A stretch of 64,000 nucleotides of DNA from Woeseiaceae bacterium (GTDB lineage Bacteria; Pseudomonadota; Gammaproteobacteria; Steroidobacterales; Woeseiaceae), in contig JBFFSI010000005.1 of the NCBI GenBank assembly GCA_041572475.1, positions 475 through 64,474 on the forward strand, in the 5' to 3' direction. The stretch's first letter is position 1; each line of letters opens with the position of its first letter. Shown in pieces: positions 20,510 to 35,709 of the stretch. Below the pieces are notes generated by a model. That model made no database searches, had not been told where the DNA came from, and saw only the letters and a program-made list of their open reading frames with translations. Both the position numbers and the translations under genes were made by a program.

Positions 20510-21192
20510 GCGCGGCGTCGGCGGCGACAAAGCGCCGGGAGCTCCGCAAGCGTCGCGAGAAGCCAGTCGCCGCCCAGCTCCTCGACCGGCGTAATCGTGT
20601 AGCCGTGGCTGACAAGCGCACACGGCACATCCGCCGCTCGCGCCGTCTCGACATCCGTCCCGCTGTCGCCGACATAGAGAGCCTGTTCCGTCGTGGCGCC
20701 GAGCTTCGTGATAGTCGCGAGGAGCGGCGCGGGATCGGGCTTGGGCGGCAGGCCCGAGCCGTATCCCTGTACCGCATCGAAGCGATCTCGGACGCCGAGA
20801 TCGCCGAGTAACTTGGCGCAGAACGGATCCGGCTTGTTACTGCAGATCCCGAGCCGGATACCCATTCCGGCGACAGCTTCGAGACAAGGCTCGACATCGG
20901 GGAACAGTCGGCTCAGCGCGTTGCCGCCGGCTTCATAGTGTTCGTTGAAGGCCGCCGTCAGCCGCACGACGGTGCTCTCGCTCGCGTCGGCTGCGTGCAG
21001 CGCCAGCGCGCGCCGCACGAGAACCTTGGGGCCTGCCCCGATCATGGTCTTGACCGTGGCGAGGTCGACCGGCGCGACCGCGTCCTCTGCCAGCGCCTGG
21101 TTCAGGGCGTGCTGGATATCCGTCGCCGTGTCGGCAAGGGTGCCATCGAGGTCGAAGACGATGACGCGGGGCCAGGCTGCCTTGTTGGTCAT
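20506..21192 (-). CDS. gph: Phosphoglycolate phosphatase (HAD superfamily)
   Basis: HAD motif I VIVFDLDGTLADT and motif IV YVGDSGTDVETARAA. Its start codon shares one nt with the prk stop (TGATG on the minus strand at 21190-21194). Confidence 0.8.
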   Translation of the reverse strand: MTNKAAWPRVIVFDLDGTLADTATDIQHALNQALAEDAVAPVDLATVKTMIGAGPKVLVRRALALHAADASESTVVRLTAAFNEHYEAGGNALSRLFPDVEPCLEAVAGMGIRLGICSNKPDPFCAKLLGDLGVRDRFDAVQGYGSGLPPKPDPAPLLATITKLGATTEQALYVGDSGTDVETARAADVPCALVSHGYTITPVEELGGDWLLATLAELPALCRRRRRA

Positions 21193-22082
21193 CAGGCGAC
21201 CAGCCGGCCCCGGGATCGGCTGGCATCGATCATCCTCTGCAGGATCGGCATCAGGATGAGTTCCATGGCCAGCAGCATCTTGCCGCCTGGAACCACGATC
21301 GTGTTCCGGCGCGAGATGAACGAACGGTCCAGCATCGCGAGCAGGTACGGGAAGTTGATGTCGAATTTCGTCGGGTCGCGGAAGCGAATGACGATGAAGC
21401 TCTCCTCGGCCGTGGGGATATCGCGTGCGATGAACGGGTTGGAGGTGTCAACCGTCGGCACCCGCTGGAAATTGATGTCCGTGCGTGAGAACTGTGGCGT
21501 TATGTGGTTCACGTAGTCTTCCATGCGCCGCAGGATGGTCTTGGTCACGTCGACCTCGGCATAGCCGCGATCGGCGGTGTCGCGGTGTATCTTCTGGATC
21601 CACTCCAGGTTGACGATCGGAACGACGCCGATCAAGAGGTCGGCGAACTGCGCGACGTTGCATTCGCCCGTGACCATGGCGCCATGCAGACCCTCGTAGA
21701 GTAGCAGGTCAGCATCGCTCGGCAAATCCTCCCAGTCGGTGAACGTGCCGTTCGGGCTGCCGCGCTCGACCGCCTCTTCTTCGTTATGGATGTAATAGCG
21801 GCGTTTGCCCTTGCCCGATTCTCCGAACTCCTTGAACAGGGTGGCCAATTCGCAGAGCAGGTTGGCATCCGGGCCGAAGTGGCTGATGTTCCTGCCCTGT
21901 GCCTCGGCCCTGGCGATCGCCTCGCGCATCTCGGCGCGGTTATAGCGGTGGTAGCTGTCGCCCTCGATAATCGCCGAGTTGACGTCGAGGCGCCGGAAAA
22001 TGTGCTCGAAGGCCTTCTTGACGGTGGTGGTGCCGGCCCCGGAGGAACCGGTGACTGCGACGACTGGGTGCCGGGTAGACAT
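21192..22082 (-). CDS. prk: Phosphoribulokinase
   Basis: VAVTGSSGAGTTTVKKAFEHIFRR...IEGDSYHRYNRAEMR...NISHFGPDANL, the classic bacterial PRK N-terminus. 296 aa. Confidence 0.92.
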   Translation of the reverse strand: MSTRHPVVAVTGSSGAGTTTVKKAFEHIFRRLDVNSAIIEGDSYHRYNRAEMREAIARAEAQGRNISHFGPDANLLCELATLFKEFGESGKGKRRYYIHNEEEAVERGSPNGTFTDWEDLPSDADLLLYEGLHGAMVTGECNVAQFADLLIGVVPIVNLEWIQKIHRDTADRGYAEVDVTKTILRRMEDYVNHITPQFSRTDINFQRVPTVDTSNPFIARDIPTAEESFIVIRFRDPTKFDINFPYLLAMLDRSFISRRNTIVVPGGKMLLAMELILMPILQRMIDASRSRGRLVA

Positions 22083-22671: not shown

Positions 22672-24006
22672 TCACACGACCTGCACAGCGATTCGGTGGC
22701 ATGCGTTGTTGAGATAACCCTTGGGATTCCAGCCCGGCAGGACCATCGGCTGCGACTTGCCCGCCTCGTCGGTGGCCCGGGCCCATATTTCGTAGTAACC
22801 CGGCCCGGGGAACTCCACCTCGGTCAGCCAGCGCTGCCAGGCGAATCGGTTGACCGGGCGGCGGAGTTCCGCCCTCTGCCAGGTGGCGCCGAAGTCGATG
22901 GAAACGTGCATGTCGCTGACGGCGAGATCGCCGGCCCATGCATGGCCACGCAATGCGAGAGGGCGACCGTGCGCATGCTCGAGGCCGGACCTCGGGAACG
23001 TGATCAGCGACTTGACCGGCATCGATTCGATGATGCACATCTCGTCGTCCGGAACGACGCTGCCCGGCGCCACCGGCTTGCACGGCACGCGATAGGAAGT
23101 GCCGGTCATCTTCGGGCCGTCGTGCACCTGGTTACGCACCACGATCTTCCTGAGCCACTTGCCGGCGACCGAGCCCGGCCAGCCGGCGCAGACCAGGCGT
23201 AGCGGGTAGCCGTTCATGTGCGGGATGTCCTCGCCGTTCATGGCCCAGGCGATCAGGGTCTCGTCCTCCATCGCCTTGGCGACAGGCACGCCGCGCGATA
23301 TCGGGACCTTGCCGGGGTCGCCGCTGGCGTGCGTGTCCGCCCCGTAATAGGCGACGTAGACCGCATCCTCGCCTATGCCGACGTATTCCAGGACGTCCCG
23401 GAGGCGCACGCCGGTCCAGGCCGGGCAACCGACCGCGCCGACAGACCACTGGTTGCCCGAGGCCGGCGGCACGAATTCACTGCGGCCATTGCCGCCGCAC
23501 TCGAGTTGCAGCTGGTAGGTGTAATGCTCGAACCGCTCCTTGAGCTCGGCCACGGTGAAGCGCATCGGCCGCTCGGCGGACTCGCCGCCAATCTCCAGCG
23601 TCCAGGCCTCGGGATCGATGTTGGCGGTGTTCGGCGGGGTGCCGTTGTTCCTGACGAACAGGTACCTGGCCGGCGTGACGTCGTCGTCGAGGAGATGCGC
23701 CGGTGTTTCGGCATTGACGGGCCTGTCGTTGAGGATGATCAGGCCTTCCTTGCCCGGAATCTGGAACGGCCGGGTCGTCTGCGCGATGGCCGCCGGTATC
23801 AGGCCGCCAGGCATGAGGTGTGCAAACGGGATAGAGGCGCCGACGGCGGCGGACATTGCTGCCAGGCCGCCCTTCGTCAGGAATCCGCGGCGGGTCATCG
23901 GGTTGACCTTGCGTCCCCAGACCAGTTCGTCCGCTTTGCCAGGATCTTCCGCGTACAGCGCGTGGATGCCGCGTTTCTTGAGTGCCACCTTCGCCCTCCG
24001 GTTCAT
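22672..24006 (-). CDS. Periplasmic molybdopterin sulfite dehydrogenase (sulfite-oxidase family, SorA-like)
   Basis: Twin-arginine signal MTRRGFLTKGGLAAMSAAVGA. Moco-Cys block LQLECGGNGRSE. C-terminal dimerisation-domain length is as expected. The start may be ATG 23898 (MTRRGFL) rather than 24006. Confidence 0.85.
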   Translation of the reverse strand: MNRRAKVALKKRGIHALYAEDPGKADELVWGRKVNPMTRRGFLTKGGLAAMSAAVGASIPFAHLMPGGLIPAAIAQTTRPFQIPGKEGLIILNDRPVNAETPAHLLDDDVTPARYLFVRNNGTPPNTANIDPEAWTLEIGGESAERPMRFTVAELKERFEHYTYQLQLECGGNGRSEFVPPASGNQWSVGAVGCPAWTGVRLRDVLEYVGIGEDAVYVAYYGADTHASGDPGKVPISRGVPVAKAMEDETLIAWAMNGEDIPHMNGYPLRLVCAGWPGSVAGKWLRKIVVRNQVHDGPKMTGTSYRVPCKPVAPGSVVPDDEMCIIESMPVKSLITFPRSGLEHAHGRPLALRGHAWAGDLAVSDMHVSIDFGATWQRAELRRPVNRFAWQRWLTEVEFPGPGYYEIWARATDEAGKSQPMVLPGWNPKGYLNNACHRIAVQVV

Positions 24007-24381: not shown

Positions 24382-24921
24382 TCAGATAAACAGGTTGATA
24401 TCGGCTTGGGTCGCACACTCGATATACGTTGCGGCGCCACCGATATTAATGCCATCGATCATGTCTGCCTTGTCATACTCGAAAAGGTCCATGGTCATCT
24501 GGCAACCGATCAGGCGCACATCCGACTCCACGGCCATATCTCGCAGATCCTCGATCGACGCGACGCCCTTCTTCTTGATCAGGTTTTTCATCATGACCGA
24601 GCATGCAGCATCGACGCCCGGGACCGCCGTGAGCAAATTCGGCAGACCCATGTGCGCACCCATCATCGGCATCTTCATCGCCGGGTTGCCGGCGGCGGTC
24701 ACCTGCAGGTTGAGCTTCTTGAGCAGCAGCGGCAAACCGTAGAAGGTAAAGAACATCGTCACGTTCAGTCCCATCGCCGCCGCGGTCGTGGCAAGAATGA
24801 ACGGCGGGTAGGCCCAGTCGAGACTGCCCTTCGTGACGATGATCGTCATGTTTTTGGTTTCGGGAGCCGCAGCCGGCGCACCGCTGGCAGCGTCCTGGAC
24901 GGCTTGTGCTTCACTGGACAT
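24382..24921 (-). CDS. DsrE/DsrF-family sulfurtransferase, DsrE3-like
   Basis: DsrE fold length after a 25-aa low-complexity N-terminus. Conserved-looking RLIGCQMTMDLF Cys segment. An AAGGGGTGA SD precedes the ATG at 24921. Confidence 0.75.
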   Translation of the reverse strand: MSSEAQAVQDAASGAPAAAPETKNMTIIVTKGSLDWAYPPFILATTAAAMGLNVTMFFTFYGLPLLLKKLNLQVTAAGNPAMKMPMMGAHMGLPNLLTAVPGVDAACSVMMKNLIKKKGVASIEDLRDMAVESDVRLIGCQMTMDLFEYDKADMIDGINIGGAATYIECATQADINLFI

Positions 24922-25054
24922 CGATAATCACCCCTTGTAGATATATGGATCAGGCGATCCAAACAGCATATTAGTATATCAGAATTGTCTTTATTAGTTT
25001 AATGGAATACTCTGGCTCGCCTGCCTGAATTGTACCGTCAACGCGTTTGGATTT
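24922..25054. promoter_or_regulatory. AT-rich divergent control region between dsrE3-tusA-sorAB and the lipoate-assembly/sHdr run
   Basis: The only sizeable AT-rich gap in the island. It contains GGATC-AGGC-GATCC (24947-24960) nested in GATATA...TATATC, and a possible + strand promoter TTGTCT-17 nt-TACTCT (from 24986). Confidence 0.45.
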
Positions 25055-26245
25055 ATGCATCGAATGCAGTCGCAACCTGCAGCTGGTAATACCGTCCGGG
25101 ACGCGGCGAGCCGGGATTCAGCGTCGATCGCCGACGCGCAACCTGTGCCGCTGTATGTCGGCAGTGGCCTATTCCGGCGCGCTGCTTTCGGCAACCATCA
25201 CCCGCTGAAGATCGTCCGCCATTCTGCCGTCCTCGACCTCGTGCACATGCTTGGCTGGCTGACGGACGAGGCGTTCTGCACGGCGCCGGCGGCGACCTTC
25301 GATGAGCTCACGACATTTCATGACCCGGACTACGTGCGGGCCCTTCAATACGCAGACTCCACCGGGACGGTCGATCCCGCAGAGCGCACGCATTACCGCA
25401 TCGGCACCCTCGAAAACCCGTTGTTCACAGGGCTGTTCGAGCGGGCGGCAACGACGGTCGGCGGTTCGATACTGGCCGCGAGGCTAGCCGGCAAGGGCCA
25501 CGTCGTGTTTCACCCCTCCGGCGGCACCCACCATGGCCGGCCCGGCCGGGCGAGCGGTTTCTGCTATTTCAACGATCCCGTTTTCGCGATCCGGACCCTG
25601 CTTGGCGAGTGCGAGATGGACCGCGTGATGTATATCGACCTCGATGCCCATCACGGTGACGGGGTGGAGGAGGCGTTCGTCGACGAGCCTCGAGTGATGA
25701 CGGTGTCTATTCACGAGCAGCACCGCTGGCCCTACAGCGGCCTGGCCAGCGACCGGCGCAACGGCGGCGCGCGCAATCTGCCGGTCCCGAAGGGCGTCAA
25801 CGACAGCGAGCTCGAGTACCTGGTCGAGCATGCCGTGGAGCCGCTGCTTGACAGGTTCGCCCCCGATGCGCTCGTGCTCTGTTGCGGCGCGGACTGCCTG
25901 GCCGGGGATCCGTTGTCCGGCATGCAGCTGAGCAACGTGGCGCTGTGGGACACCGTGGAACGGCTGCTGGCGACCGGCAAGCCCGCGGTCATTCTCGGCG
26001 GTGGCGGTTACAATCCCTGGACCGTGGCGCGCTACTGGGCCGGTCTGTGGGGCCGCCTGATCGGCGCGACGTTCCCGGACGAGTTGCCCGCCGAGGCTCG
26101 CGAGTTGTTCGGCAAGTTGGAATGCGACCTGATCGACGAAGACGACGTCGAAGAGGCCTGGCTCAAGACGCTGGTGGACGTTCCCAATGCGGGCAAGGTG
26201 CGCGACGAGATAAGATCATTGGCGAGGGAAGTGACGAGGAGGTGA
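25055..26245 (+). CDS. Zn-dependent histone-deacetylase-family (AcuC/HDAC class I-like) lysine deacylase
   Basis: All catalytic blocks are present: SGGTHHG...ASGFCYFND, Zn ligands in DLDAHHGDG and GADCLAGDPL, and catalytic Tyr in GGGGYN. The exact start is uncertain (ATG 25055 or 25064, or GTG 25145). Confidence 0.85.
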   Translation: MHRMQSQPAAGNTVRDAASRDSASIADAQPVPLYVGSGLFRRAAFGNHHPLKIVRHSAVLDLVHMLGWLTDEAFCTAPAATFDELTTFHDPDYVRALQYADSTGTVDPAERTHYRIGTLENPLFTGLFERAATTVGGSILAARLAGKGHVVFHPSGGTHHGRPGRASGFCYFNDPVFAIRTLLGECEMDRVMYIDLDAHHGDGVEEAFVDEPRVMTVSIHEQHRWPYSGLASDRRNGGARNLPVPKGVNDSELEYLVEHAVEPLLDRFAPDALVLCCGADCLAGDPLSGMQLSNVALWDTVERLLATGKPAVILGGGGYNPWTVARYWAGLWGRLIGATFPDELPAEARELFGKLECDLIDEDDVEEAWLKTLVDVPNAGKVRDEIRSLAREVTRR

Positions 26246-26247
26246 GC

Positions 26248-27285
26248 ATGGCGTGGCTTGATGCCCTGGCCGGGATCGACGACCTGGAAGACGCGGAATT
26301 CGACGGAGATCTCGTTGCGCGCTTCGAGGCGATGGCGGCGAGGACCGTCGAGCGCCCGATCCGATTCTCGACGCCCACCTTCAAGGAATACGAAAGCTCC
26401 GAGCTGAGTGGTTGCGGCAAGAACAGCTTCCCGGCCTTTTCGATCACCGCGGCGGCCTGCGCGCTGAATTGCGACCACTGCCAGAAAAAAATCCTGGAGC
26501 CGATGATCCCGGCGACCAACCCGGCGATGCTGGACACGAAAGTGCGCCACCTCATCGAGACCCAGGAACTGAACGGGTTCCTGCTGTCAGGCGGTTCCAA
26601 CAAGCGCAACGAGATTCCGTACAGTCGCTACATGCCCGTCATCGAACACCTCAAGCGCGACTTCCCGCAGCTCAAGATTGCCGTGCACAGTGCGCTGCTG
26701 GACGAGCCGCGCGCAAAGGAGATGGAATCCGCAGGCGTCGACACGGTCATGATGGACGTCATCGGCGCCCAGGAGACCATCAACGAGGTCTACAACCTCG
26801 ACCGCTGTGTCGACGACTTCGAGGCGACACTCGCCGCGCTGTGTTCCACGTCCATGGAAGTGACGCCGCATATCGTGATCGGCCTGCACTATGGGCGCAT
26901 CCTCGGCGAGGCGAACGCGCTGGACATGGTCAGCCGCTACCCGGTGACGGCGCTGGTCTTGGTCGTGATCATGCCGTTCTATGCGAAGCCCGGGACCTTC
27001 GTCACGCCTGCAACTGCCGACGTCGGCCGCATCTTCCTCGAGGCGAGGGAGCGGCTGCCAGACCGGCAGGTGCTGCTGGGCTGTGCGCGGCCGCCAGGCA
27101 TGCACAAGCGGGTCACGGACGCTTACGCCATAATGGCCGGGCTCGATGGCATAGCCTTTCCGGCCGACGGCGCCGTCAGCGTGGCGCATACGATCGGCCG
27201 GCCGTTCGAGCAGGCGCATTCCTGCTGTTCGATCAAGGTCGGCAGCAGCCTCAAGACGTCAATTTCGCGTTCATGCGCGGCGTAA
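26248..27285 (+). CDS. Radical-SAM protein, LipS1/LipS2-type lipoyl synthase component (A)
   Basis: CX3CX2C as CALNCDHC. 345 aa. GAGGAGG SD (26236-26242) lies inside the deacylase gene, whose TGA (26243-26245) is 2 nt before this ATG. Assignment as LipS1 or LipS2 cannot be made by eye. Confidence 0.7.
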   Translation: MAWLDALAGIDDLEDAEFDGDLVARFEAMAARTVERPIRFSTPTFKEYESSELSGCGKNSFPAFSITAAACALNCDHCQKKILEPMIPATNPAMLDTKVRHLIETQELNGFLLSGGSNKRNEIPYSRYMPVIEHLKRDFPQLKIAVHSALLDEPRAKEMESAGVDTVMMDVIGAQETINEVYNLDRCVDDFEATLAALCSTSMEVTPHIVIGLHYGRILGEANALDMVSRYPVTALVLVVIMPFYAKPGTFVTPATADVGRIFLEARERLPDRQVLLGCARPPGMHKRVTDAYAIMAGLDGIAFPADGAVSVAHTIGRPFEQAHSCCSIKVGSSLKTSISRSCAA

Positions 27286-27300
27286 GCAAAGGATAGGACC

Positions 27301-28515
27301 ATGAGTTGCATCGAGCCGAAGTCCAGTACCGCGATGGAGCCGCGCTTCCCGCAGAAGACGCCGCAGGAGCGCCGTAACGGCCGCCGCGTCAAGGACAATG
27401 ACATCCCGCCGGAAGGTGTGTACCTGCCAAACAACAACTACCTCGCCCCGCACATGGTCTCGCCCGAGTATGTGCAGATGTCCAATGCGGCCGCGATCAC
27501 TCTAGGCATCATGGGCGGGCGCATGTACCGCTGCGAATGCACGCGCTGCCTCAACCTGCTGCTGACCTATCCCGAGGGTTGCCGGGCCAACTGTGCCTAC
27601 TGCGGGCTGGCGCGCCACCGCGAGGCGGACCGCGACTATGCGGACCGTAATTTCATCCGCGTCGACTGGCCGGCAGTGCCGCTTGTCGACATCGTCGATA
27701 TCGTTGCGAAAGACCCGGAGAACAGTCCGTTCCATCGGATGTGCATCTCGATGATCACGCACCCGCGGTCGGAGGCGGATACCTTCACGGTTCTCGAGCG
27801 CTGGACGGACCGGATCGACCCGGATGCGATTCCCGTTTCGATCCTGTCGAACCCGACGACGATGACCCGTGAGGACGTGCAGAAGACCCGGGATCTCGGC
27901 GCCGACATCTTCACGGTGGCGCTCGACGCAGCCACGCCCGAGGTCTTCGACCGCACGCGCGGGAAGGGCGTCCAGTCGCCGCACAAGTGGTCGAAGTACT
28001 GGGAGATCCTGCTCGATGCAAAAGATATCTTCGGCCCGGACAAGTTCGGCGCGCACATCATTGTCGGCATGGGGGAGACCGAATACGAGGCGCTGAAACT
28101 GGTCCAGGAGCTCGTCGATCTCGGTGGTCACAGCCACATGTTCTGCTTCTTCCCGGAGCAGGGCTCGCTGATGGATCATCTGCCCGCGACGCCCCGCGAC
28201 CAGTGGCGTCGAGTCCAGCTGGCGCGCTACCTGATCGACTACCGCGACGTCCGCGTCGATCACATGCGTTTCGACGATGAGGGCCGTGTCGTGGACTTCG
28301 GCCTGCCTGCGTCGGAACTCTCCAACATCATCGACGACGGCATCGCCTTCCGGACGTCGGGGTGCCCGGGCAAAGTCCAGGACGACATATCGGCCTGTGA
28401 CCGTCCCTACGGCGACTCACCCCCCTCGGATATCGCGAGCTATCCGTTCCAGCCCGAGAAGAAAGACATCAAGAAAATCCGCAAGCAACTCGAAATCCCG
28501 GTGCGGGTCGAATAA
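27301..28515 (+). CDS. Radical-SAM protein, LipS1/LipS2-type lipoyl synthase component (B), BioB-like
   Basis: CX3CX2C as CRANCAYCGLAR. 404 aa. Starts 15 nt after the previous gene. Confidence 0.7.
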   Translation: MSCIEPKSSTAMEPRFPQKTPQERRNGRRVKDNDIPPEGVYLPNNNYLAPHMVSPEYVQMSNAAAITLGIMGGRMYRCECTRCLNLLLTYPEGCRANCAYCGLARHREADRDYADRNFIRVDWPAVPLVDIVDIVAKDPENSPFHRMCISMITHPRSEADTFTVLERWTDRIDPDAIPVSILSNPTTMTREDVQKTRDLGADIFTVALDAATPEVFDRTRGKGVQSPHKWSKYWEILLDAKDIFGPDKFGAHIIVGMGETEYEALKLVQELVDLGGHSHMFCFFPEQGSLMDHLPATPRDQWRRVQLARYLIDYRDVRVDHMRFDDEGRVVDFGLPASELSNIIDDGIAFRTSGCPGKVQDDISACDRPYGDSPPSDIASYPFQPEKKDIKKIRKQLEIPVRVE

Positions 28516-28530
28516 GCCGACCTGCAAGGC

Positions 28531-29613
28531 ATGCCGAACGCATTTCGAATCATCGATACCGGTGTCCGCGAGGGCCGCGCCAATATTGCTTTCGATGCGG
28601 CGCTGATCGAAGAACGGCAGGCAGGCCGCGTGCCGGATACGGTTCGCTTCCTGCGGTTTCCGCCGACTGCGCTGATCGGGCGGCACCAGGACCTCAGCCG
28701 GGAGGTCAACCTCGACTATTGCCGTGAGCACGGGATCGGCATCGTTCGCCGCATCACGGGCGGCGGCGCCATCTACCTCGACGAGGGTCAGCTCGGCTGG
28801 GAACTCGTGTTTCATCGCGCCTCCCTGGGTGTTGCCGCGTTGCCCGACCTGACGCGCAAGATCTGCGATGCGGCCGCCGCCGGGCTGAGAAAGCTCGGCG
28901 TCAAGGCCCGGTTCCGGCCGAGAAACGACATCGAAGTAGATGGCCGCAAGCTGAGCGGGACGGGTGGCTTCTTCGACGGCGACGTGCTGATCTTCCAGGG
29001 GACGGTGCTGGTCGACATGAATTCGGGGCAGATGGCGCAGGCGCTGAATATCCCGGAAAGCAAGCTGGCCAAACATCAGCTGGAGTCGGCGGCCGACCGC
29101 ATCGTGACGCTGAAAGAACTGCTGGGCGACGACCTGCCGCCCATGGCGGACATACAGCAGGCACTCATCGACGGTTTCACCGAGAGTTTCGGCATCGAGG
29201 CCGCGCCCGGCGTCATCAGCGAGGCGGAAGAGGCGCTGGCCCACCGGCACTTCATCGAGGAGATCGGCACCGACGAGTTTGTCGGGGAAATCGACAATCC
29301 CGGCGAGGACAACGAGTTGCTCAGCGGTAGCCATACCGGTCCCGGCGGCACGATCGATGCGCACGTCAAGCTCGAGGGTCCGACCCGGCGCATGCTGCAG
29401 CGGGTACTGATCAGCGGCGACTTCTTCGTGACGCCGCCGCGCATCGTGTTCGACCTCGAGGCACACCTGATGCACACGCGCATCGAGGAGGTCGGTGCAG
29501 CCATCGACGAGTTCTTCGCGGACAACGACATCGACATGCTCAGCGTGTCCCCCGACGACTTCAAGGCGTCGATCGCCGCGGCCGTCGGGGCGGGAGGGCG
29601 GGCCGGTGTCTGA
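28531..29613 (+). CDS. Lipoate-protein ligase, sLpl(AB)-type (LplA catalytic plus accessory domain)
   Basis: N-terminal BPL/LPL catalytic-domain blocks: RFLRFPPTALIGRHQDL...IVRRITGGGAIYLDEGQL...GRKLSGTGGFFDG. Confidence 0.85.
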   Translation: MPNAFRIIDTGVREGRANIAFDAALIEERQAGRVPDTVRFLRFPPTALIGRHQDLSREVNLDYCREHGIGIVRRITGGGAIYLDEGQLGWELVFHRASLGVAALPDLTRKICDAAAAGLRKLGVKARFRPRNDIEVDGRKLSGTGGFFDGDVLIFQGTVLVDMNSGQMAQALNIPESKLAKHQLESAADRIVTLKELLGDDLPPMADIQQALIDGFTESFGIEAAPGVISEAEEALAHRHFIEEIGTDEFVGEIDNPGEDNELLSGSHTGPGGTIDAHVKLEGPTRRMLQRVLISGDFFVTPPRIVFDLEAHLMHTRIEEVGAAIDEFFADNDIDMLSVSPDDFKASIAAAVGAGGRAGV

Positions 29614-29659
29614 TTGCAGCCCCGACGCATTCGCCATGGCCGGGCGCACCGGGGCGCCA

Positions 29660-30403
29660 ATGAACGTCGTCGCGGTGATCCAGCATACCTCCGGAGAGTA
29701 CCTCGGCCTGATGGAGGACCACCTGGAAGGCCGTCGGATCCGCTTCCAGTATTTCCGCCCATTTACGAGCGGCGGCAAGCTGCCGGCGGCTGACTTGCCG
29801 GCCGACGCGTTGATCCTGCTGGGGGGCGGCCCGTGGGGCGCCGCCGGCACCCGCGACCTGCCGACGCTGGCCGAGGAAATCGAATTGACCCGGGCGCGCC
29901 TGGCGGAGGGTACGCCCGTCATCGGTATGGGCCTCGGCGCGCAGATCCTCGCCATCGCCGCCGGCGGGGGCGCGGAACCGGCCGAATTCGCGTTCGAGAT
30001 CTACCCGGCGACCCGCATCAAAGACGATGCGCTCAACGGCTTCCTGCCCGAGCGCTTCACGCAGGTGACGTACATGCGCGACCGTCCCGTACTGCCCGCC
30101 GACGCGAAGGTGCTGGCAGTGGGTCCCGACGACCGGCCGGCGATCTTCCAAATGGGCCATAATGCTTATGGCTTTCTGGGTAACCCCGGGATTAAGCTCG
30201 GCATGATCGAAGACCTCATCATGGAGTTCGAGGAAGTGCCGATCGGTGCGCCTGCCGAACTCGAGAGATTGCGCGGACTCCAGGTGGCTATCGAAGACGA
30301 CCTGGTGCCCATCATGACGGGGCTGGTGCAGTGCACGGCCCTGATGACGTCGCCACGGGCGGCGGAGGAAGCTGCGCGCAAATTGGACAACCCTTTAATT
30401 TAG
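29660..30403 (+). CDS. Class-I glutamine-amidotransferase-like protein lacking the nucleophile cysteine
   Basis: MNVVAVIQHTSGEYLG...LILLGGGPW...PVIGMGLGAQILA. The nucleophile-elbow position (G-x-C-x-G) reads G-M-G-L-G. An alternative start is ATG 29636. Confidence 0.65.
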   Translation: MNVVAVIQHTSGEYLGLMEDHLEGRRIRFQYFRPFTSGGKLPAADLPADALILLGGGPWGAAGTRDLPTLAEEIELTRARLAEGTPVIGMGLGAQILAIAAGGGAEPAEFAFEIYPATRIKDDALNGFLPERFTQVTYMRDRPVLPADAKVLAVGPDDRPAIFQMGHNAYGFLGNPGIKLGMIEDLIMEFEEVPIGAPAELERLRGLQVAIEDDLVPIMTGLVQCTALMTSPRAAEEAARKLDNPLI

Positions 30404-30470
30404 GATATGCTAATGTGCTGTTAAGCGGCCTTCCGTGGGGGTGGGTCGGCGGCAGCCGAGGATAATAACA

Positions 30471-30851
30471 ATGGCTGAGAAACTCATTATCGTCATGGCG
30501 AACACCGACACCCGGAACGGCGAGGAGCTCGGTGCGCCGATTTTCCAGGCGACCGTGGCAGCGGCGATGGATTATGAGGTGGACGTGATTTGCACGGCGA
30601 CGGCTGGCCGCCTGATGAAGAAAGGCGTCGCGGAAAAGCTGTTCGTGAAGGAAGGGTCGCCGAAGTCGGTTTACAGCTTCATCCAGGATGCCCACGAAGC
30701 CGGCGCCAAGTTCTATTGTTGTTCGCCTAACCTCGACCTCTTCGACATGACCCAGGACGACCTCATTCCCGAATGCGAAGGGATCGTCGGCGGCGCTCAC
30801 CTGATTGAGCAGGTCATGGAGGAAGAGGACACCCGGGTTCTTACTTACTAG
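30471..30851 (+). CDS. DsrE-family small sulfurtransferase-like protein
   Basis: 126 aa. GAGGA SD lies 8 nt before ATG 30471. KLIIVMANTD...AKFYCCSPNLDLFDM is DsrE/DsrF-like with paired Cys. Confidence 0.72.
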   Translation: MAEKLIIVMANTDTRNGEELGAPIFQATVAAAMDYEVDVICTATAGRLMKKGVAEKLFVKEGSPKSVYSFIQDAHEAGAKFYCCSPNLDLFDMTQDDLIPECEGIVGGAHLIEQVMEEEDTRVLTY

Positions 30852-30860
30852 GTCAGCTCT

Positions 30861-31607
30861 ATGTCGCACGCGTCCACGTCTCGAGTACAGGAATACATTG
30901 GCGATCCCGTATCGGAAGAAACACCGGTACCGAGGGAGCAACTTGAGGAGATCTTCCAGGACATCCAGGCGGACCTGCGCTACGACCACGAGCTGAACGG
31001 CTGTCTCAACTGCGGCATCTGCACCGCAACCTGCCCGGCTGCGCATTACTACGATTTCAGCCCGCGCGAGATCGTGCAGCTGCTCTGGACCGAGAATCTC
31101 GAGGGCATCTACGATGCCATGCAGGAGAAGATCTGGTCCTGTGCCCAGTGTTACACCTGTGCGGCGCGCTGTCCCTTCGGCAACTCGCCGGGTGGTCTGG
31201 TCATGCTCATGCGCGAGACCGCGATCAAGCACGGCATGGAGTCCGCCAAGAGCGTGCTGCGGCCGTTTAGCCGCGTCATGCTGAAGCTGATCTCCACGGG
31301 CAACCAGCTGTCGCCGGACATGATCAACCCCGAAGGCTTTGCCGATTGGGGGCCGCACATCTCGAAGGTGGATGCGCCGCTCGAGACGCTGCGCAAGGCG
31401 ATTCCGATGCCGACCTTGCATACGACCAAGACGGCATGGGAGGTCAACCTCAAAACATCTGTCGAGCTCTACACGATCTGGGAAGAAACCGGCGTGCTCG
31501 ACAGCCTCGAAACGATTGACGAAAACCTCTTCGACGTCATCTCGGACATCATGGACGAGAAGCGTGATGACTACGAAGACTGGTTGGACGAGCAGGACGA
31601 AGACTAG
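30861..31607 (+). CDS. hdrC1: sHdrC1, ferredoxin-like heterodisulfide-reductase-like subunit
   Basis: Two 4Fe-4S motifs, CLNCGICTATCP and CAQCYTCAARCP. Position and size are typical of sHdrC1. Confidence 0.85.
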   Translation: MSHASTSRVQEYIGDPVSEETPVPREQLEEIFQDIQADLRYDHELNGCLNCGICTATCPAAHYYDFSPREIVQLLWTENLEGIYDAMQEKIWSCAQCYTCAARCPFGNSPGGLVMLMRETAIKHGMESAKSVLRPFSRVMLKLISTGNQLSPDMINPEGFADWGPHISKVDAPLETLRKAIPMPTLHTTKTAWEVNLKTSVELYTIWEETGVLDSLETIDENLFDVISDIMDEKRDDYEDWLDEQDED

Positions 31608-31616
31608 GAGTAGCAA

Positions 31617-32963
31617 ATGTCGACAGGTAATGGTGGGGAACGTTTCACCGGTCACGGTTCTGAGTGGCAGGATACAAACCTGAGTAAGGAGGAAGCGCAC
31701 GTGGCTACGGTCTGGGTCGACCAGATCGTCAACCGGCGCTCCATGCTGACCAACAAGGACCGCGTCGAAGACGTGCGTGACCTGATGTGGGAACTCGAGA
31801 AAGACGGCGAGATCCTCGTGCATCGCGTCGAGGATCAGCACGAGCCGATCATGGTCAAGACGCTGTATGGCTGGGACAAGAAAATTCCGACGACCCAGCT
31901 ATGGCATCACAAGTCCTGCGGGCAGTGCGGCAACATCCCCGGTTACCCGGCTTCGCTCCTGTGGCTCATGAACGAGATGGACATCCGGTATCTCGACGAG
32001 ACCGACCAGACCTCGTGCACGGCATGGAACTACCACGGTTCGGGCATAGGCAATATCGAGAGCCTCTCGGCCGTGTTCCTGCGCAACTTCCACCAGGCCT
32101 ACGTCGCGGCCAAGGCCCAGGGCCTGCCGGAGGGCTACTACTATCCGCTGGTTCACTGCGGCACGTCTTTCGGCAACTACAAGGAGGTGCGCGGTTACCT
32201 GCTGCACTCGGCCAAGCTGCGCGAGCGGGTCAAGAAGATCCTCGGTAAGCTGGGGCGCCTCGTGGACGGCAAGCTGCTGATTCCCGAAGAGGTCGTGCAC
32301 TACTCCGAATGGCTGCACGTGATGCGGGACAAGATCGCCGAACGCCAGGTTATCGACGCCAGCGAGATCCGTGCGACGGTGCACCCGGCCTGCCACGTCT
32401 ACAAGATGGTGCCGGAAGACGCCATTTACGACGACAAGATTCTCGGCGGCAACCGTGTCGCCGTGACGACCGGGGTTCTCGAGTCGCTGGGCACGCAGGT
32501 CATCGACTACCGCACCTGGTACGACTGCTGCGGATTCGGCTTTAGGCACATCATTTCCGAGCGCGAGTTCACGCGCTCGTTCGCGATCGATCGCAAGATC
32601 CGGGTGGCGCAGGAAGAGGCGCGCGCGGATATGATGATTGGCCACGACACCGGTTGCATCACCACGCTCGACAAGAACCAGTGGATCGGCGCAGCCGCCG
32701 GCAAGCCGGTCGACCTTCCCGTGATGGCGGACTGCCAGTTCGCCGCGCTGGTCTGCGGCGCACATCCCTACAAGATCGTGCAGCTGCACTGGCACGCGTC
32801 GTCGACCGAAAGGCTGATGGAAAAACTGGGCATCGACTGGCAGGCGAAGAAAGCCGAGTTCGAGGCCTATTTAAAGGACGTGGAAGCGGGCAAGGGCGAG
32901 ACCCTTTACGACCCGCGAAAGATGATCACGTCCGGTCCGGGATTCAAGGCAATCGAAGGCTAG
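31617..32963 (+). CDS. hdrB1: sHdrB1, CCG-domain subunit
   Basis: 448 aa. Cys-rich blocks CGQCGN, HPACHVYK and WYDCCGFGF (CCG motif). Confidence 0.85.
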   Translation: MSTGNGGERFTGHGSEWQDTNLSKEEAHVATVWVDQIVNRRSMLTNKDRVEDVRDLMWELEKDGEILVHRVEDQHEPIMVKTLYGWDKKIPTTQLWHHKSCGQCGNIPGYPASLLWLMNEMDIRYLDETDQTSCTAWNYHGSGIGNIESLSAVFLRNFHQAYVAAKAQGLPEGYYYPLVHCGTSFGNYKEVRGYLLHSAKLRERVKKILGKLGRLVDGKLLIPEEVVHYSEWLHVMRDKIAERQVIDASEIRATVHPACHVYKMVPEDAIYDDKILGGNRVAVTTGVLESLGTQVIDYRTWYDCCGFGFRHIISEREFTRSFAIDRKIRVAQEEARADMMIGHDTGCITTLDKNQWIGAAAGKPVDLPVMADCQFAALVCGAHPYKIVQLHWHASSTERLMEKLGIDWQAKKAEFEAYLKDVEAGKGETLYDPRKMITSGPGFKAIEG

Positions 32964-33022
32964 GTTGCCTCGTGCCGCCCGCGGCGGCATAGAGAGACGG
33001 CTCGCTGAGACGAGAGGATGAC

Positions 33023-34072
33023 ATGGCAAAACCAATACTAATTCTAGGTGGCGGACCGGCCGGTCTGGCCGCGGCACATAGCCTCGGTACCGTTGGCCGT
33101 TCCAGTATTCTCGTCGAGAAAGAAGACAAGCTCGGGGGCGCACCGATCCTGTCCGGCTATGCCAAGCTCGTGCCTACGGGCGAATGGGCCAAGGATGCGA
33201 TCGGCGGGATGGTGAAACGAGTCGAGAATGACAAGAACGTCAAGGTGCTAACCGGTACTACCGTCACGAAGTTCGACGGCAGTCCCGGGAATTTCGAAGC
33301 ACAGCTCTCCAGTGGCGACAGCGTGCAGGTCGATGCGGCAGTACTCTGTAGCGGGTTCACTCACTTCGACTCGGTCAACAAGCCCGAGTGGGGTTTCGGC
33401 ACGTTTCCCGATGTCGTGACGACGACCCAGGTCGAGCAGATGATCTCGTCGGGCCAGGGCGTGCGCTGCCCGTCTGACGGCCGCAAGCCGCAACGGGTAG
33501 CGATCCTGCTGTGCGTCGGCTCCCGTGACCGCCAGATCGGCCGCGAGTGGTGCTCCAAGATCTGCTGCACGGTATCGGCCAACATGGCCATGGAGATCCG
33601 CGAGGAGCTGCCGGATTGCCACGTCTATATCTATTACATGGACATCCGAACCTTCGGCCTCTACGAGACCAAGTACTACTGGCGCAGCCAGGAGGAGTTC
33701 AAGGTCAAGTACATCAAGGCGCGTATCGCCGAGGTCACGTCCGACGGTGAGAAGCTGATCGTCAAGGGCGAGGACACACTCGTGAAGCGTCCGATCACGA
33801 TCCCCTTCGACTTGGTGGTGCACGCGATTGGCATGGACCCGAACGTGGATAACCCGACCATCGCCGAGACCTTTGGTGTCGACCTCGAAGAACACGGGCA
33901 CATTGCTGCGGCCAATCGCTACGGCGCCATGGGTCACACGTCTCGACCCGGCGTTTACGTTGCCGGCGCGGCAACCGGCCCGGAGACGATCGATGATTCG
34001 ATCGCCCAGGGCCACGCGGCCGCCATGTCGGTGCTGTCGGCCCTCAGCGAGTCGCTGGGCAAGAGCGCCTAG
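33023..34072 (+). CDS. hdrA: sHdrA, FAD/FeS flavoprotein subunit (short bacterial type)
   Basis: Dinucleotide fold ILILGGGPAGLAAAHSLG. HdrA cluster signature LLCVGSRDRQIGREWCSKICC. 349 aa. Confidence 0.9.
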   Translation: MAKPILILGGGPAGLAAAHSLGTVGRSSILVEKEDKLGGAPILSGYAKLVPTGEWAKDAIGGMVKRVENDKNVKVLTGTTVTKFDGSPGNFEAQLSSGDSVQVDAAVLCSGFTHFDSVNKPEWGFGTFPDVVTTTQVEQMISSGQGVRCPSDGRKPQRVAILLCVGSRDRQIGREWCSKICCTVSANMAMEIREELPDCHVYIYYMDIRTFGLYETKYYWRSQEEFKVKYIKARIAEVTSDGEKLIVKGEDTLVKRPITIPFDLVVHAIGMDPNVDNPTIAETFGVDLEEHGHIAAANRYGAMGHTSRPGVYVAGAATGPETIDDSIAQGHAAAMSVLSALSESLGKSA

Positions 34073-34083
34073 GGCCGCGCACC

Positions 34084-34929
34084 GTGTCGAAGATTGCCGC
34101 GTTGCAGCCCGCCGACATCGAGCGCCCCGTGCTCGACCTGTCGGGTGACGCGCTGCGCGCGGGCCTGAAGGCCATGGTGGTGTGCAGCGAGGAACACGGC
34201 GGCATCGAGCGCTATGTGGATGCCGTCAAGCTGAAGAGCAAGTTGTTCCGCGAGGCCCTCGTGGAAACCTCCGTGGACAACCTGGAGCTCGAGACCTTCA
34301 AGGGGCTGTGCACGTTCATGGCGACGGTGCGGCGGCGCGTCAGTGGCTGGCTGACGACAGACTCTTTCGACCACATGCGCGGGCGCATCAAGGAACTACT
34401 GGAAGGCGATGCCGACGTGGACGCCCGCATCGCGGCCTTCTGTAGCCATTTCCCGACTGACAAGCGGCATCGCTGGGTGCGGGATCTCGCCACCGAGCTG
34501 CTGCACAATTCCGATCCCGAGCGCATCCCGCTGATGAACCGCTGGGTGTGGGATGCGAAAGCCAACACCGGCGTCATCCGTGAGATCTGGCACGGCGACG
34601 ACGTGGATCACATGACCATTCCGGTAGCGGACGGCTACGGTACCTACGTGATGCTGCGGGAAGAGCTCAGCCAGTTCCTGAGCGACGAAGGTATGTTCCG
34701 GGATGTCCTGCAATACGTGGATATGCTCTGCGCGCAGATCTATGCGCAATACATCTGCGAGCAGGGCGGCAGCTACCTGCGCACGGATTTCTCGGCGCCG
34801 GAAGACCCGATGGAACACACGCGGCGCCTGCTGGGACTTGACGGCGTCCGCCCGGGCAACGGCAAGACGAGACTCAAATCGATCGACGGCGAGGCTTTCG
34901 TCATCGAGGACAACAAACTGTTGAACTGA
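34084..34929 (+). CDS. Conserved 'Hyp' protein of sHdr clusters (between hdrA and hdrC2)
   Basis: 281 aa from GTG 34084, 11 nt after hdrA and 6 nt before hdrC2. Position and size match the conserved hypothetical of described shdr loci. No motif is known to me. Confidence 0.7.
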   Translation: MSKIAALQPADIERPVLDLSGDALRAGLKAMVVCSEEHGGIERYVDAVKLKSKLFREALVETSVDNLELETFKGLCTFMATVRRRVSGWLTTDSFDHMRGRIKELLEGDADVDARIAAFCSHFPTDKRHRWVRDLATELLHNSDPERIPLMNRWVWDAKANTGVIREIWHGDDVDHMTIPVADGYGTYVMLREELSQFLSDEGMFRDVLQYVDMLCAQIYAQYICEQGGSYLRTDFSAPEDPMEHTRRLLGLDGVRPGNGKTRLKSIDGEAFVIEDNKLLN

Positions 34930-34935
34930 CCGACC

Positions 34936-35700
34936 ATGCCAATTCACGAAAAATCGCTGATCCGCCCCGAAAACCTCAAGACGCACGATGAACTCGTCCT
35001 CGATGGGGTCGATGTCTCCGGCCACTGGAGCACCTTCATCGAATCCCGCGTCGTGACCGACTACAACGAAAAACTGGAGGACGAGATCGCCGCGCTCCCG
35101 GGCGGCGAGCACATCCACCGCTGCTGGCAATGCGGGTCCTGCACGAACTCCTGCACGGTCCATGCCATCAACCCGGACTTCAACCCGCGCTACTGGATCT
35201 ACCTGATCCGCATTGGCATGGAATCCGAGCTGCTGCGCGACAAGGACATCATCTGGCAGTGCGTGTCCTGCAACAAGTGCACCTACGCCTGCCCCCGCGA
35301 CGTGTTCCCCGAGGGTGTGATGAAGGCGACCGGGCACTGGCTCGAGCGCAAGGGCCACACCGAGAAGTCACCCTCGACGCACTTCGACGAGGTGTTCACC
35401 GAGCAGGTCGTCAAGACCGGCAAGATCGAGGAAAGCCGGACAATTCGGCGGTTCTTCACGCGCACGAAACAGGCGCTGGTGCAGCCCTGGATGGTCGAGA
35501 TGATGATACGGCTGCTGCGGGGCCTGCCCGTCGGCCTGCTGACCCGGATGGGTCTTGCCACGCTGGTGGCGCCGCGCACCAGCGGCTGGTCGCGAGCGTC
35601 GCAGGCGATGCAGGAGTATATCGACGAGCAGCATGCGAAACAGGAAGAGGCATTGACGCTGGCACAGACTATCGAAAAGGCGCGTCGGGACGCCGCCTAG
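34936..35700 (+). CDS. hdrC2: sHdrC2, ferredoxin-like subunit
   Basis: CWQCGSCTNSCT and CVSCNKCTYACP. Confidence 0.85.
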   Translation: MPIHEKSLIRPENLKTHDELVLDGVDVSGHWSTFIESRVVTDYNEKLEDEIAALPGGEHIHRCWQCGSCTNSCTVHAINPDFNPRYWIYLIRIGMESELLRDKDIIWQCVSCNKCTYACPRDVFPEGVMKATGHWLERKGHTEKSPSTHFDEVFTEQVVKTGKIEESRTIRRFFTRTKQALVQPWMVEMMIRLLRGLPVGLLTRMGLATLVAPRTSGWSRASQAMQEYIDEQHAKQEEALTLAQTIEKARRDAA

Positions 35701-35709
35701 GAACATTAG

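Follow-up and report, generated by a model that had tools for sequence, protein, structure and literature searches.

A predicted zinc-dependent HDAC-family lysine deacylase is encoded at the head of lipoate-assembly operons in Proteobacteria

The window, a 64,000-nucleotide stretch of a Woeseiaceae contig, encodes an HDAC-family deacylase at the start of a run of lipoate-assembly and sulfur-oxidation genes. The features of this region are the following.

24382-24921, minus strand: dsrE2, sulfur-carrier gene, divergent from the deacylase gene (NF047629 SulfCarrDsrE2, 217 bits, above the cut-off)
24968-24987, plus strand: conserved 20-nt element ATATTAGTATATCAGAATTG, direct repeat in the divergent dsrE2/deacylase intergenic region
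24992-25013: degenerate second copy of the 20-nt element
25055-26245, plus strand: HDAC-family deacylase gene (396 aa, N-terminal ~30 residues predicted to be disordered)
26236-26242, plus strand: GAGGAGG, Shine-Dalgarno sequence of lipS1, located in the deacylase reading frame, 5 nt ahead of the lipS1 ATG
26248-27285, plus strand: lipS1, radical-SAM lipoyl synthase subunit (NF053742, E 9e-59; PF04055)
27301-28515, plus strand: lipS2, radical-SAM lipoyl synthase subunit (NF053743, E 1e-54; PF04055)
28531-29613, plus strand: sLpl(AB)-type lipoate/octanoate:protein ligase (PF21948 LplA-B_cat, E 3e-47; TIGR00545 and LplB models)
29639-30403, plus strand: lipX-like class-I glutamine-amidotransferase-like (GATase) gene (weak PF00117; PRK07053, E 3e-19)
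30435-36642, plus strand: dsrE3 and shdrC1-B1-A-hyp-C2-B2 (ORFs; DsrE family match; gene order conserved across loci)
37085-37525, plus strand: lbpA, GcvH-like lipoate-binding protein (PF01597 GCV_H, E 2.5e-31)
37576-37908, plus strand: ArsR-type regulator, sHdrR/SoxR-like (PF01022 HTH_5, E 3e-14)

The names LipS1 and LipS2 are meant at the family level only, because both proteins score under the NCBI curated cut-offs; the lipS1 of the window shares 68-88% identity with its counterparts in related loci. The Hdr gene names were assigned by homology to the published genes, and the product of the dsrE3-shdr cluster is a sulfur-oxidising heterodisulfide-reductase-like complex (sHdr). The acceptor lysine of LbpA likely lies in the motif ESGKWVG. 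The start of the ArsR-type regulator was set at an internal ATG by reading the ORF. dsrE2 is found in the same place in most gammaproteobacterial loci. The name lipX for such a GATase-like gene comes from PMC10332631; the start codon of the copy in the window is uncertain and its position is conserved in relatives.

The sLpl(AB)-LipS1/LipS2 route was established between 2018 and 2023 (Cao 2018, PMC6067878; Tanabe 2023, PMC10332631). Its accessory genes are lipT, lipX and lipY, which are largely unassigned. The window has the lipS1, lipS2, slpl(AB), lipX and lbpA of this pathway, and its lip genes stand next to shdr genes in an arrangement of the published kind. The difference lies in the deacylase gene: in the window, as in over 100 related loci, it leads the operon, whereas the published sLpl(AB) clusters are described without it. 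Our search of the accessible literature library gave no paper tying an HDAC/AcuC enzyme to LipS1, sHdr or LbpA, which agrees with the preliminary description of this DNA, whose author was not aware of such an enzyme in sHdr/LbpA or lipoate loci.

The deacylase matched the Pfam profile PF00850 (Hist_deacetyl) over the whole model, with residues 49-332 covering profile positions 1-295 of 298 (E 5e-69; 233 bits for a cut-off of 27.9). It is a member of the Zn-dependent HDAC / arginase-deacetylase superfamily. The translation contains GGTHHG (156-161), ASGFCYFND (166-174), DLDAHHGDG (195-203), GADCLAGDPL (278-287) and GGGGYN (315-320). The closest solved structure is that of Aquifex HDLP (1c3r, E 1e-65), and in the alignment to it H159/H160 correspond to HDLP H131/H132, the charge-relay residues D195 and D202 to D166 and D173, the zinc ligands D197, H199 and D280 to D168, H170 and D258, and the catalytic tyrosine of GGGY, Y319, to Y297. 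Thus, all the motifs on which an intact class-I HDAC enzyme had been proposed are present, and the catalytic residues match those of HDLP. Another residue, E120, aligns with D101 of HDAC8. Across 85 related genes, E120 and the aligned catalytic residues show no or almost no variation (conservation of 97% or more).

The AlphaFold2 model of the protein (pLDDT 89.3, pTM 0.90) was matched by Foldseek to HDLP (TM 0.87/0.93, rmsd 2.0), followed by HDAC8 and HDAC2, and has the alpha/beta fold of the arginase-deacetylase superfamily. Graf et al. 2024 (PMC11532494) define cluster 2 of the family, i.e., class I and AcuC-HDLP, by XGG(L/x)HH instead of RPPxHH and by (G/A)GGY. The deacylase carries this signature (SGGTHH at 155-160, GGGY at 316-319), and its best PDB matches are HDLP, HDAC8 and HDAC1/2. 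The enzyme belongs to the class-I / AcuC-HDLP branch and is predicted to be catalytically competent as a Zn-dependent N6-acyl-lysine amidohydrolase.

The same residues give some indication of the acyl groups that might be accommodated. The deacylase has the motifs of an open foot pocket (GGGxHH-type, with a small residue before GGY), a type associated with the removal of longer acyl chains (PMC11532494). Two long-chain lysine deacylases of this kind, Vibrio cholerae HdaH (cluster 5b; SGGYHH/GGGY) and human HDAC11 (GGGFHH/SGGY), resemble the deacylase of the window (SGGTHH/GGGY) but belong to another cluster of the family, and the Vibrio enzyme binds decanoate (PMC11532494). Since the foot-pocket motif is common to all class-I-type enzymes, it permits a medium-chain substrate and does not predict one. 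A true member of the long-chain group would be expected to prefer C8-C14 acyl-lysine to acetyl-lysine.

The deacylase gene is closely tied to the genes that follow it. Its stop codon (TGA, 26243-26245) is separated by 2 nt from the lipS1 ATG (26248-26250), and these positions, together with the GAGGAGG inside its coding sequence, confirm the earlier proposal that it heads the lip operon in tight coupling to lipS1. Upstream, the pattern of the 20-nt element is exactly conserved in 27 retrieved loci, and the element lies between dsrE2 and the deacylase gene wherever its position was compared with gene maps. In two loci lacking the deacylase (L052 and L077) it is found directly 5' of lipS1. It may serve the lip operon as an operator or promoter element; a simple scan of the dsrE2-deacylase spacer returned neither a sigma-70 promoter nor a terminator. 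Being downstream of this promoter-region element and coupled to lipS1, the deacylase is expected to be made with the lipoate-building enzymes.

A conserved linkage to lipoate genes, proposed as a check in the preliminary description, was found in each of three samples. Among genome loci retrieved with the deacylase, lipS1 was nearby in 32 of 33 and directly downstream in 29; one gene intervenes in two loci (L024 and L026), the order differs in a third (L012), and the 33rd contig breaks off 10 nt beyond the deacylase stop. The metagenome loci were retrieved with LipS1, as the best 80 matches (74-88% identity), and 67 of the 70 informative ones had the deacylase upstream. This set is biased to Woeseiaceae-like relatives because only the best 80 matches were taken, a bias partly offset by the search with alphaproteobacterial LipS1, where the deacylase was upstream in all five look-ups. 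Within this sampling, which reached Alpha-, Beta- and Gammaproteobacteria but not archaeal, Aquificae, Acidithiobacillus or Thioalkalivibrio-type loci, the linkage holds in more than 100 loci.

Members of the deacylase clade nearly always open a lipS1-(lipT)-lipS2-slpl(AB)-lipX operon, beside the sHdr-LbpA genes. The adjacency to lipS1 is kept through at least seven operon architectures, and in two loci (L014 and L018) the ligase gene is elsewhere while the deacylase is still with lipS1. In 100 loci, the deacylase stop and the lipS1 start overlap in 22 cases, are 0-15 nt apart in 36 and 16-60 nt apart in 37. The pairwise distances of the deacylase and LipS1 co-vary (r 0.83, Mantel p ~0.001). 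The deacylase evolves faster, with a mean pairwise distance of 0.38 (0.24 for LipS1 and 0.18 for LipS2).

The deacylase is nevertheless dispensable for the lipoate-assembly pathway. At least three related loci (L052, L077 and L111) lack it, and L077 bears a deletion scar in which only the last ~60 deacylase codons are left. No deacylase gene figures in the descriptions of the published Hyphomicrobium and Thioalkalivibrio clusters, and a Thioalkalivibrio helper plasmid (lipS1-slpl(AB)-lipT-lipS2) gives holo-LbpA in E. coli without it. We infer that the enzyme has an accessory role, improving the pathway without being one of its core steps. The earlier observation that LipT is missing holds, as we found no LipT homologue in the 64-kb window, but the accompanying idea that the deacylase fills the slot of LipT does not. 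Both genes are present in Burkholderiales and in several alphaproteobacterial loci, where LipT is placed between lipS1 and lipS2, and this frequent co-occurrence excludes the deacylase as a substitute for LipT.

Dispensability in some lineages would fit a passenger gene with no tie to lipoate, or a small-molecule amidohydrolase acting, e.g., on an acetylated amine, and the HDAC family does include polyamine and xenobiotic amidases (PMC11532494). We consider this very unlikely, given a linkage seen in over 100 loci of three classes, the constraint on all catalytic residues, the class-I type of the enzyme with its retained equivalent of HDAC8 D101, and the lack of relation to ApaH clusters.

The public annotation of clade members is AcuC ("acetoin utilization protein AcuC"). 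HDLP (PDB 1c3p/1c3r) and bacterial AcuC share with the deacylase the fold, the catalytic residues and the XGGxHH and GGGY motifs, at ~33% identity, and all are monomer-sized single domains. Yet, the deacylase of the window falls in a separate clade and lacks the acuA/acuB partners. The gene for AcuC sensu stricto, which deacetylates AcsA at a conserved C-terminal lysine, accompanies acuB and the acetyltransferase gene acuA in the vicinity of acsA, whereas the neighbours of the deacylase are dsrE2 and lipS1 and the partner genes of its clade are lipS1, lipS2 and slpl(AB). The AcuC label is misleading for the lipS1-linked clade.

The lipS1-linked deacylases are monophyletic (87 of 100 bootstraps with a fast distance method). 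Their nearest relatives in the tree are alphaproteobacterial "AcuC" proteins (P0124 group) of equal length and ~47% identity, whose gene is followed by a DUF192 gene in all six loci and shows no link to lipS1/lipS2 or slpl(AB). The two clades have the same acyl-pocket residues (T158, R130, G161 and GGGY). The site of T158 is occupied by Leu, Met or Trp in HDAC1, HDLP and HDAC8; T158 and R130 differ from HDLP but are shared with the sister clade, and we rejected them as a pocket signature private to the lipS1-linked clade. In these sequences we see no sign that the pocket was remodelled for a special acyl group. E120 does separate the clades: it is kept in 98% of the lipS1-linked clade, and the equivalent site in the sister clade is Gly. 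In AcuC, HDAC2 and HDAC8 the Asp at this site forms hydrogen bonds with the main chain of bound cyclic-peptide inhibitors (PMC11532494), and the retention of E120 therefore favours a protein or peptide substrate. Other residues specific to the lipS1-linked clade include T118, G126, A131, V135, H153, F177, G284, M290, T323, Y327, C357 and L359. One sister-clade gene (L115) lies just upstream of pdhABC-lpd-lipA; the five other sister loci are not near such genes, and we judged this a chance placement and discarded a wider tie of the AcuC family to lipoyl proteins.

The pocket shared with the sister clade, and the annotation itself, would suit an AcuC-like regulatory deacetylase that takes an inhibitory acetyl group off the ligase, LipS1/S2, sHdr or an acyl-CoA synthetase, instead of acting on the LbpA lysine. 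The activation of AcsA by AcuC is the sole established physiological role of the family in bacteria. We regard such a function as distinctly improbable here. The window ORFs scanned against Pfam included no acuA, acuB or acsA and no GNAT, CBS or ACT protein, and the deacylase itself matched no family in the NCBIfam scan. Moreover, the linkage is specific to lipS1 and persists through many rearrangements, which a general regulator would not need.

The deacylase most likely hydrolyses N6-acyl-lysine in support of LbpA maturation, as judged from its predicted chemistry and its place in the operon. Our leading reading, to which we give somewhat less than an even chance, is that of an accessory editor which clears the LbpA acceptor lysine of blocking acyl groups. 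The enzyme would remove acyl groups that block or derail lipoylation of this lysine: acetyl, fatty acids of the wrong length introduced by the free-acid ligase, or abortive or damaged, partly thiolated chains. After clearance, sLpl(AB) would reload the lysine and LipS1/LipS2 would complete the cofactor. The published pathway begins with free octanoate loaded by the ligase (PMC10332631), so that the choice of acyl group is not set by an ACP-bound donor, and an editor of the amide bond may therefore have something to correct. Several observations point against editing: the pathway runs without the deacylase, some loci lack the gene, the pocket is the same as in the sister clade, and the enzyme evolves faster than its partners. 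By analogy, the characterised AcuC enzymes would also speak against it, as they regulate acetyl-CoA synthetase and not carrier proteins.

The need for free octanoate, whose cellular source is not named in the pathway papers (PMC10332631), could be met in another way. The deacylase might be a precursor-releasing amidase that hydrolyses octanoyl- or lipoyl-lysine on GcvH, E2 domains or peptides, or free lipoyl-lysine, with the freed octanoate or lipoate then loaded on LbpA by sLpl(AB), a relay equivalent to the LipL amidotransferase of Firmicutes. LipM does not act on LbpA in vitro, and E. coli lipoyl domains are not substrates of the sLpl ligases, hence LbpA needs a dedicated route. A supplier would fit co-expression with the ligase, the SGGTHH and GGGY type accommodates C10 in Vibrio HdaH (PMC11532494), and these loci repeatedly encode an outer-membrane transporter of the FadL family, a hint that the supply of precursor is important. 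Still, we think precursor release unlikely, since stripping housekeeping lipoyl proteins would be costly, LbpA is still lipoylated in organisms without the deacylase, and the tightest partner is lipS1 and not the ligase, as the two loci with a distant ligase gene illustrate.

Known lipoamidases and delipoylases include Enterococcus Lpa and the sirtuins CobB, SIRT4 and SIRT2. To our knowledge, none of these has the HDAC fold, and we know of none encoded in a lipoate-assembly operon. They remove the acyl group from lipoyl-lysine, which by analogy is the kind of reaction proposed for the deacylase. The latter is outside the lipoamidase families (Ser-Ser-Lys amidase-signature and sirtuin): PF00850 is its sole domain and all its structural neighbours are HDACs. 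A parallel in gene content is the SirTM/GcvH-L/LplA2/macrodomain operon of Staphylococcus and Streptococcus (PMC4518038), which also combines an enzyme of a "deacylase" family with a GcvH-like carrier and a dedicated ligase. However, SirTM is an NAD-dependent sirtuin and not a Zn-dependent HDAC, it ADP-ribosylates its carrier without deacylation (PMC4518038), and its setting is oxidative stress in pathogens rather than dissimilatory sulfur oxidation.

These systems bear on a further suggestion of the preliminary description, a lipoamidase-type off switch. Such a switch would strip lipoate from LbpA and so halt sHdr-dependent sulfur oxidation. The chemistry is feasible for the HDAC family (PMC11532494), reviews discuss lipoamidase and delipoylation activities of sirtuins, and in the SirTM operon a GcvH-like carrier that has its own ligase is controlled by a sirtuin (PMC4518038). 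Co-translation with the assembly enzymes makes the suggestion a poor fit: an eraser co-transcribed and translationally coupled with the writers, under a shared upstream element, would make a futile cycle, and opposite regulation would be expected. We hold it to be highly improbable.

The conservation of the deacylase at the operon head suggests an undescribed hydrolytic step in the building or maintenance of the LbpA lipoate, i.e., editing, repair or precursor release, which is missing from the current pathway scheme. This clade might comprise the first Zn-dependent HDAC enzyme with an acyl-lysine substrate on a lipoyl carrier, a possibility that we put forward as doubtful. It would be either a proofreading hydrolase that takes wrong, abortive or damaged C8-type acyl groups off LbpA, or a relay hydrolase that releases the octanoate or lipoate bound to other lipoyl proteins, which would then be reloaded onto LbpA at the expense of ATP. 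If a lipoyl carrier is the substrate, lipoate biosynthesis gains a hydrolytic step and a bacterial class-I HDAC is given a defined non-acetyl function. Very few bacterial HDAC-type enzymes have known physiological substrates, AcuC on AcsA being the established example. The deacylase clade brings an obvious candidate substrate, LbpA, together with a published LbpA/helper-plasmid assay system. Its function is also directly testable in cultured bacteria, because the isolates among the five alphaproteobacterial look-ups, Qipengyuania soli, Allgaiera indica and Hyphobacterium sp. HN65, carry the gene.

The gene at the head of the lip operon encodes a protein that is matched by the histone deacetylase domain (PF00850) across the whole model (Pfam, E 5e-69).

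25055-26245, + strand, deacylase ORF (396 residues)

All the motifs attributed to this protein in the preliminary description (GGTHHG, ASGFCYFND, DLDAHHGDG, GADCLAGDPL and GGGGYN) were found in its translation. Its closest solved structure is the HDAC homologue of Aquifex aeolicus, HDLP (E 1e-65), followed by HDAC8, HDAC1 and HDAC2. The residue-by-residue alignment equates H159/H160 with H131/H132 of HDLP, D195 and D202 with the charge-relay aspartates D166 and D173, and Y319 with the catalytic Y297; the zinc ligands of HDLP are matched by D197, H199 and D280, and E120 is aligned with D101 of HDAC8. The AlphaFold2 model (pLDDT 89, pTM 0.90) superposes on HDLP with TM scores of 0.87/0.93. Its first ~30 residues were poorly modelled, and pLDDT fell below 50 only at residues 1-20. 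Sequence and modelled fold place the protein in the HDAC superfamily and, within it, in the class-I / AcuC-HDLP branch, with all the defining features of both present. It is predicted to be an intact class-I HDAC-type amide hydrolase.

We searched for homologues among 1.84 billion cluster representatives. Identity to the deacylase dropped from 57% to 47%, and then to 35-40%, the level of HDLP, AcuC and the eukaryotic class I enzymes. All lipS1-linked deacylases formed one clade in a neighbour-joining tree (87/100 bootstraps), with 103 alignment columns at least 97% conserved, every catalytic residue among them. Alphaproteobacterial "AcuC" proteins, ~47% identical to the deacylase, make up the sister clade. 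In six out of the six loci examined (L114-L120, e.g., L115 6001-7610), the gene after theirs encodes a DUF192 protein (PF02643), and lipS1/lipS2 and slpl(AB), which we looked for beside them, were absent from all six. Hence, the linkage to lipS1 belongs to one orthologous group and not to AcuC-like genes generally. The sister-clade "AcuC" and DUF192 genes make an uncharacterised conserved pair. Public annotation names the lipS1-linked proteins "acetoin utilization protein AcuC". The deacylase is not AcuC sensu stricto: it has no acuA, acuB or acsA neighbours, and returned no family in the NCBIfam scan. A possible reading is that it is an AcuC-like regulatory deacetylase of an enzyme of the module.

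The junction with lipS1 is as first described: the deacylase stop codon (TGA, 26243-26245) is followed by the ATG of the next gene at 26248, and the GAGGAGG at 26236-26242 lies within the deacylase coding sequence. Pfam and NCBIfam profiles identified the genes 3' of the deacylase as LipS1, LipS2, an LplA/B-type ligase and a GATase-like protein (lipX), and further downstream DsrE3, the sHdr genes and a GcvH-like LbpA. LipS1 and LipS2 are assigned at family level, as both fall short of the NCBI equivalog cut-offs. No LipT homologue was found within the 64-kb window, in line with its reported absence. From this gene arrangement the deacylase is predicted to be co-produced with the lipoate-building enzymes, which act on one lysine of LbpA.

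Conserved linkage to lipoate genes was the test set beforehand, and its outcome is our principal finding. The scan seeded with the deacylase, with one genome per species, gave 33 loci (49-74% identical) in Woeseiaceae and other Gammaproteobacteria, Burkholderiales and Alphaproteobacteria (Robiginitomaculum, a Rhizobiaceae MAG and a Rhodospirillales MAG). lipS1 was nearby in 32 of them and directly downstream in 29; one gene separates the two in L024 and L026, and the order differs in L012. The contig of the 33rd locus stops 10 nt past the deacylase stop codon, where a lipS1-like start appears. We also searched metagenomes with LipS1. Among the 80 best matches, 70 had enough upstream sequence, and 67 of these encode the deacylase directly upstream of lipS1. 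When an alphaproteobacterial LipS1 was the seed, a PF00850 gene was immediately upstream of lipS1 in all five hits looked up. Three of the five come from strains in culture, namely Qipengyuania soli (CP064654.1), Allgaiera indica (Defluviimonas sp. 20V17) and Hyphobacterium sp. HN65. Conservation of the deacylase-lipS1 linkage is therefore strongly supported. Across 100 loci, the deacylase stop and the lipS1 start overlapped in 22 (recurrently by 14 nt), were 0-15 nt apart in 36 and 16-60 nt apart in 37. The pairwise distances of the deacylase co-vary with those of LipS1 (r 0.83, Mantel p ~0.001), the deacylase being the faster-evolving of the two.

The pairing was kept through many rearrangements among the loci compared. 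The ligase gene is elsewhere in L014 and L018, the entire lip block is downstream of lbpA in L015, and the pair is divergent from the shdr genes in L122. In Robiginitomaculum the order is lipS1-lipT-lipS2-prfB-deacylase. The pairing also occurs both with and without lipT between lipS1 and lipS2, so the suggestion that the deacylase substitutes for LipT was wrong. The gene between deacylase and lipS1 in L024 (5309-6523) encodes a YeeE/YedE-like (SoxT-type) membrane protein; L026 has a gap at ~7870-9029 that matches this insertion in size and place. An AurF-like di-iron protein gene (PF11583) was found in L028 (8123-8884), L021 (5045-5812) and L011 (3366-4052, minus strand). At some loci of Rhodospirillales and Burkholderiales it is the gene immediately 5' of the deacylase, and it stands in front of the deacylase in L021 and L028. 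One database protein of the lipS1-linked clade (P0122, 659 aa) is an AurF-deacylase fusion, which may be a gene-calling artefact. In-frame stops or broken alignments disrupt the deacylase and several neighbours in two long-contig MAGs (L033 10128-11189, and L006), more likely through assembly or sequencing error than through pseudogenisation.

The spacer between the deacylase and the divergent dsrE2 contains a repeated element, and a regulator gene is encoded further downstream:

24968-24987, 20-nt element ATATTAGTATATCAGAATTG
24992-25013, degenerate second copy of the element
~37576-37908, ArsR-type (sHdrR/SoxR-like) regulator

The 20-nt element ATATTAGNATATCAGAATTG was identical in 27 fetched loci (e.g., L001 9913-9932, L052 3407-3426, L077 1474-1493), and lay within the dsrE2-deacylase spacer wherever its position was compared with gene maps. 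In the two element-bearing loci without deacylase (L052 and L077), it is directly 5' of lipS1. The repressor sHdrR of Hyphomicrobium binds the region upstream of lipS1, and the element is a candidate operator for the ArsR-type repressor. From this shared element and its position before lipS1, we place the deacylase inside the putative regulated lip transcription unit.

The deacylase gene is not indispensable. It is absent from L052 and L111, and only its last ~60 codons are left, as a deletion scar between the element and lipS1, in L077 (1440-1740). The order in L052 (2874-8156) is dsrE2 / lipS1-lipS2-slpl-dsrE3-lbpA-arsR, with no deacylase, lipX or shdr genes in between. A plasmid with lipS1-slpl(AB)-lipT-lipS2 of Thioalkalivibrio is enough to produce holo-LbpA in E. 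coli (PMC10332631).

We infer that the deacylase cleaves an N6-acyl-lysine and that this helps lipoate to be built on LbpA. Since the published pathway begins with free octanoate loaded by the ligase (PMC10332631), our leading reading is that of an editor or reset enzyme for the acceptor lysine of LbpA, which would rid that lysine of acetyl groups and of acyl groups that are abortive, damaged or of the wrong length. Its main rival is a precursor-releasing amidase, which would supply the ligase with octanoate or lipoate taken from other lipoyl proteins or lipoyl-lysine, a hydrolase-ligase relay analogous to LipL in outcome. The proposal that the deacylase is an off switch for LbpA lipoylation is disfavoured by its translational coupling to lipS1 downstream of the shared element, because a futile cycle would result.

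Substrate preferences may be read from a few positions. Position 120 is Glu in the linked clade and Gly in the sister clade. In AcuC, HDAC2 and HDAC8, the Asp at this position (D101 in HDAC8) forms hydrogen bonds with the main chain of cyclic-peptide inhibitors when these are bound (Graf et al. 2024, PMC11532494). Given this role, the kept Glu120 favours a protein or peptide as substrate. By a published rule, a foot pocket limited to acetate goes with RPPxHH and a bulky residue before GGY, and an open one with GGGxHH-type motifs and a small residue in front of GGY; the de-decanoylase VcHdaH has SGGYHH/GGGY (Graf et al. 2024, PMC11532494). The motifs of the deacylase (SGGTHH/GGGY) belong to the open type. 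A C8 chain would thus be permitted, not predicted, as the motif is common to all class-I-type enzymes. The residues of the deacylase's acyl pocket do not differ from those of the sister clade.

The deacylase falls outside both lipoamidase families, though its action may be similar. The closest system-level analogue of its operon is the SirTM / GcvH-L / LplA2 operon, which combines a sirtuin gene with those of a GcvH-like carrier and the carrier's own ligase (PMC4518038), but enzyme family and chemistry differ. No paper in the literature searched joins a deacetylase, AcuC or HDAC with LipS1, sHdr or LbpA, which is not proof, as much subscription literature was outside its scope; nor is the association mentioned in the main papers on the lipoate pathway and on bacterial deacylases. 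We regard this as a case in which one clade of a known enzyme family, separate from the rest, has been recruited to an operon for cofactor assembly. The deacylase would supply a step, open to testing, that a recently discovered pathway has so far lacked, and its gene is found in cultured strains.

A FadL/TodX-family outer-membrane transporter (PF03349) recurs in sHdr-lip loci, and may serve for the uptake of a hydrophobic precursor (octanoate or lipoate) or a sulfur species. In alphaproteobacteria it is in the divergent dsrE2-tusA operon (L121 4514-5806, L123 4464-5771, L124 4511-5800). Two ORFs in this part of the window had no Pfam match; the N-terminus of the second is hydrophobic and may be a signal peptide:

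36639-37082, ORF (147 aa) between shdrB2 and lbpA
37908-39350, FadL/TodX-family transporter, after the ArsR-type regulator
39360-40388, ORF (342 aa) after the FadL-like gene

The locus is surrounded by other sulfur- and autotrophy-related genes:

16537-17445, - strand, TauE/SafE sulfite-exporter-like gene
21192-22082, - strand, phosphoribulokinase
22672-24006, - strand, SorA-like sulfite dehydrogenase
40439-42172, + strand, class-V aminotransferase (cysteine-desulfurase-like) with a long N-terminal extension
42175-43524, - strand, Fer4/CCG-domain protein
49087-49899, + strand, second TauE/SafE sulfite-exporter-like gene
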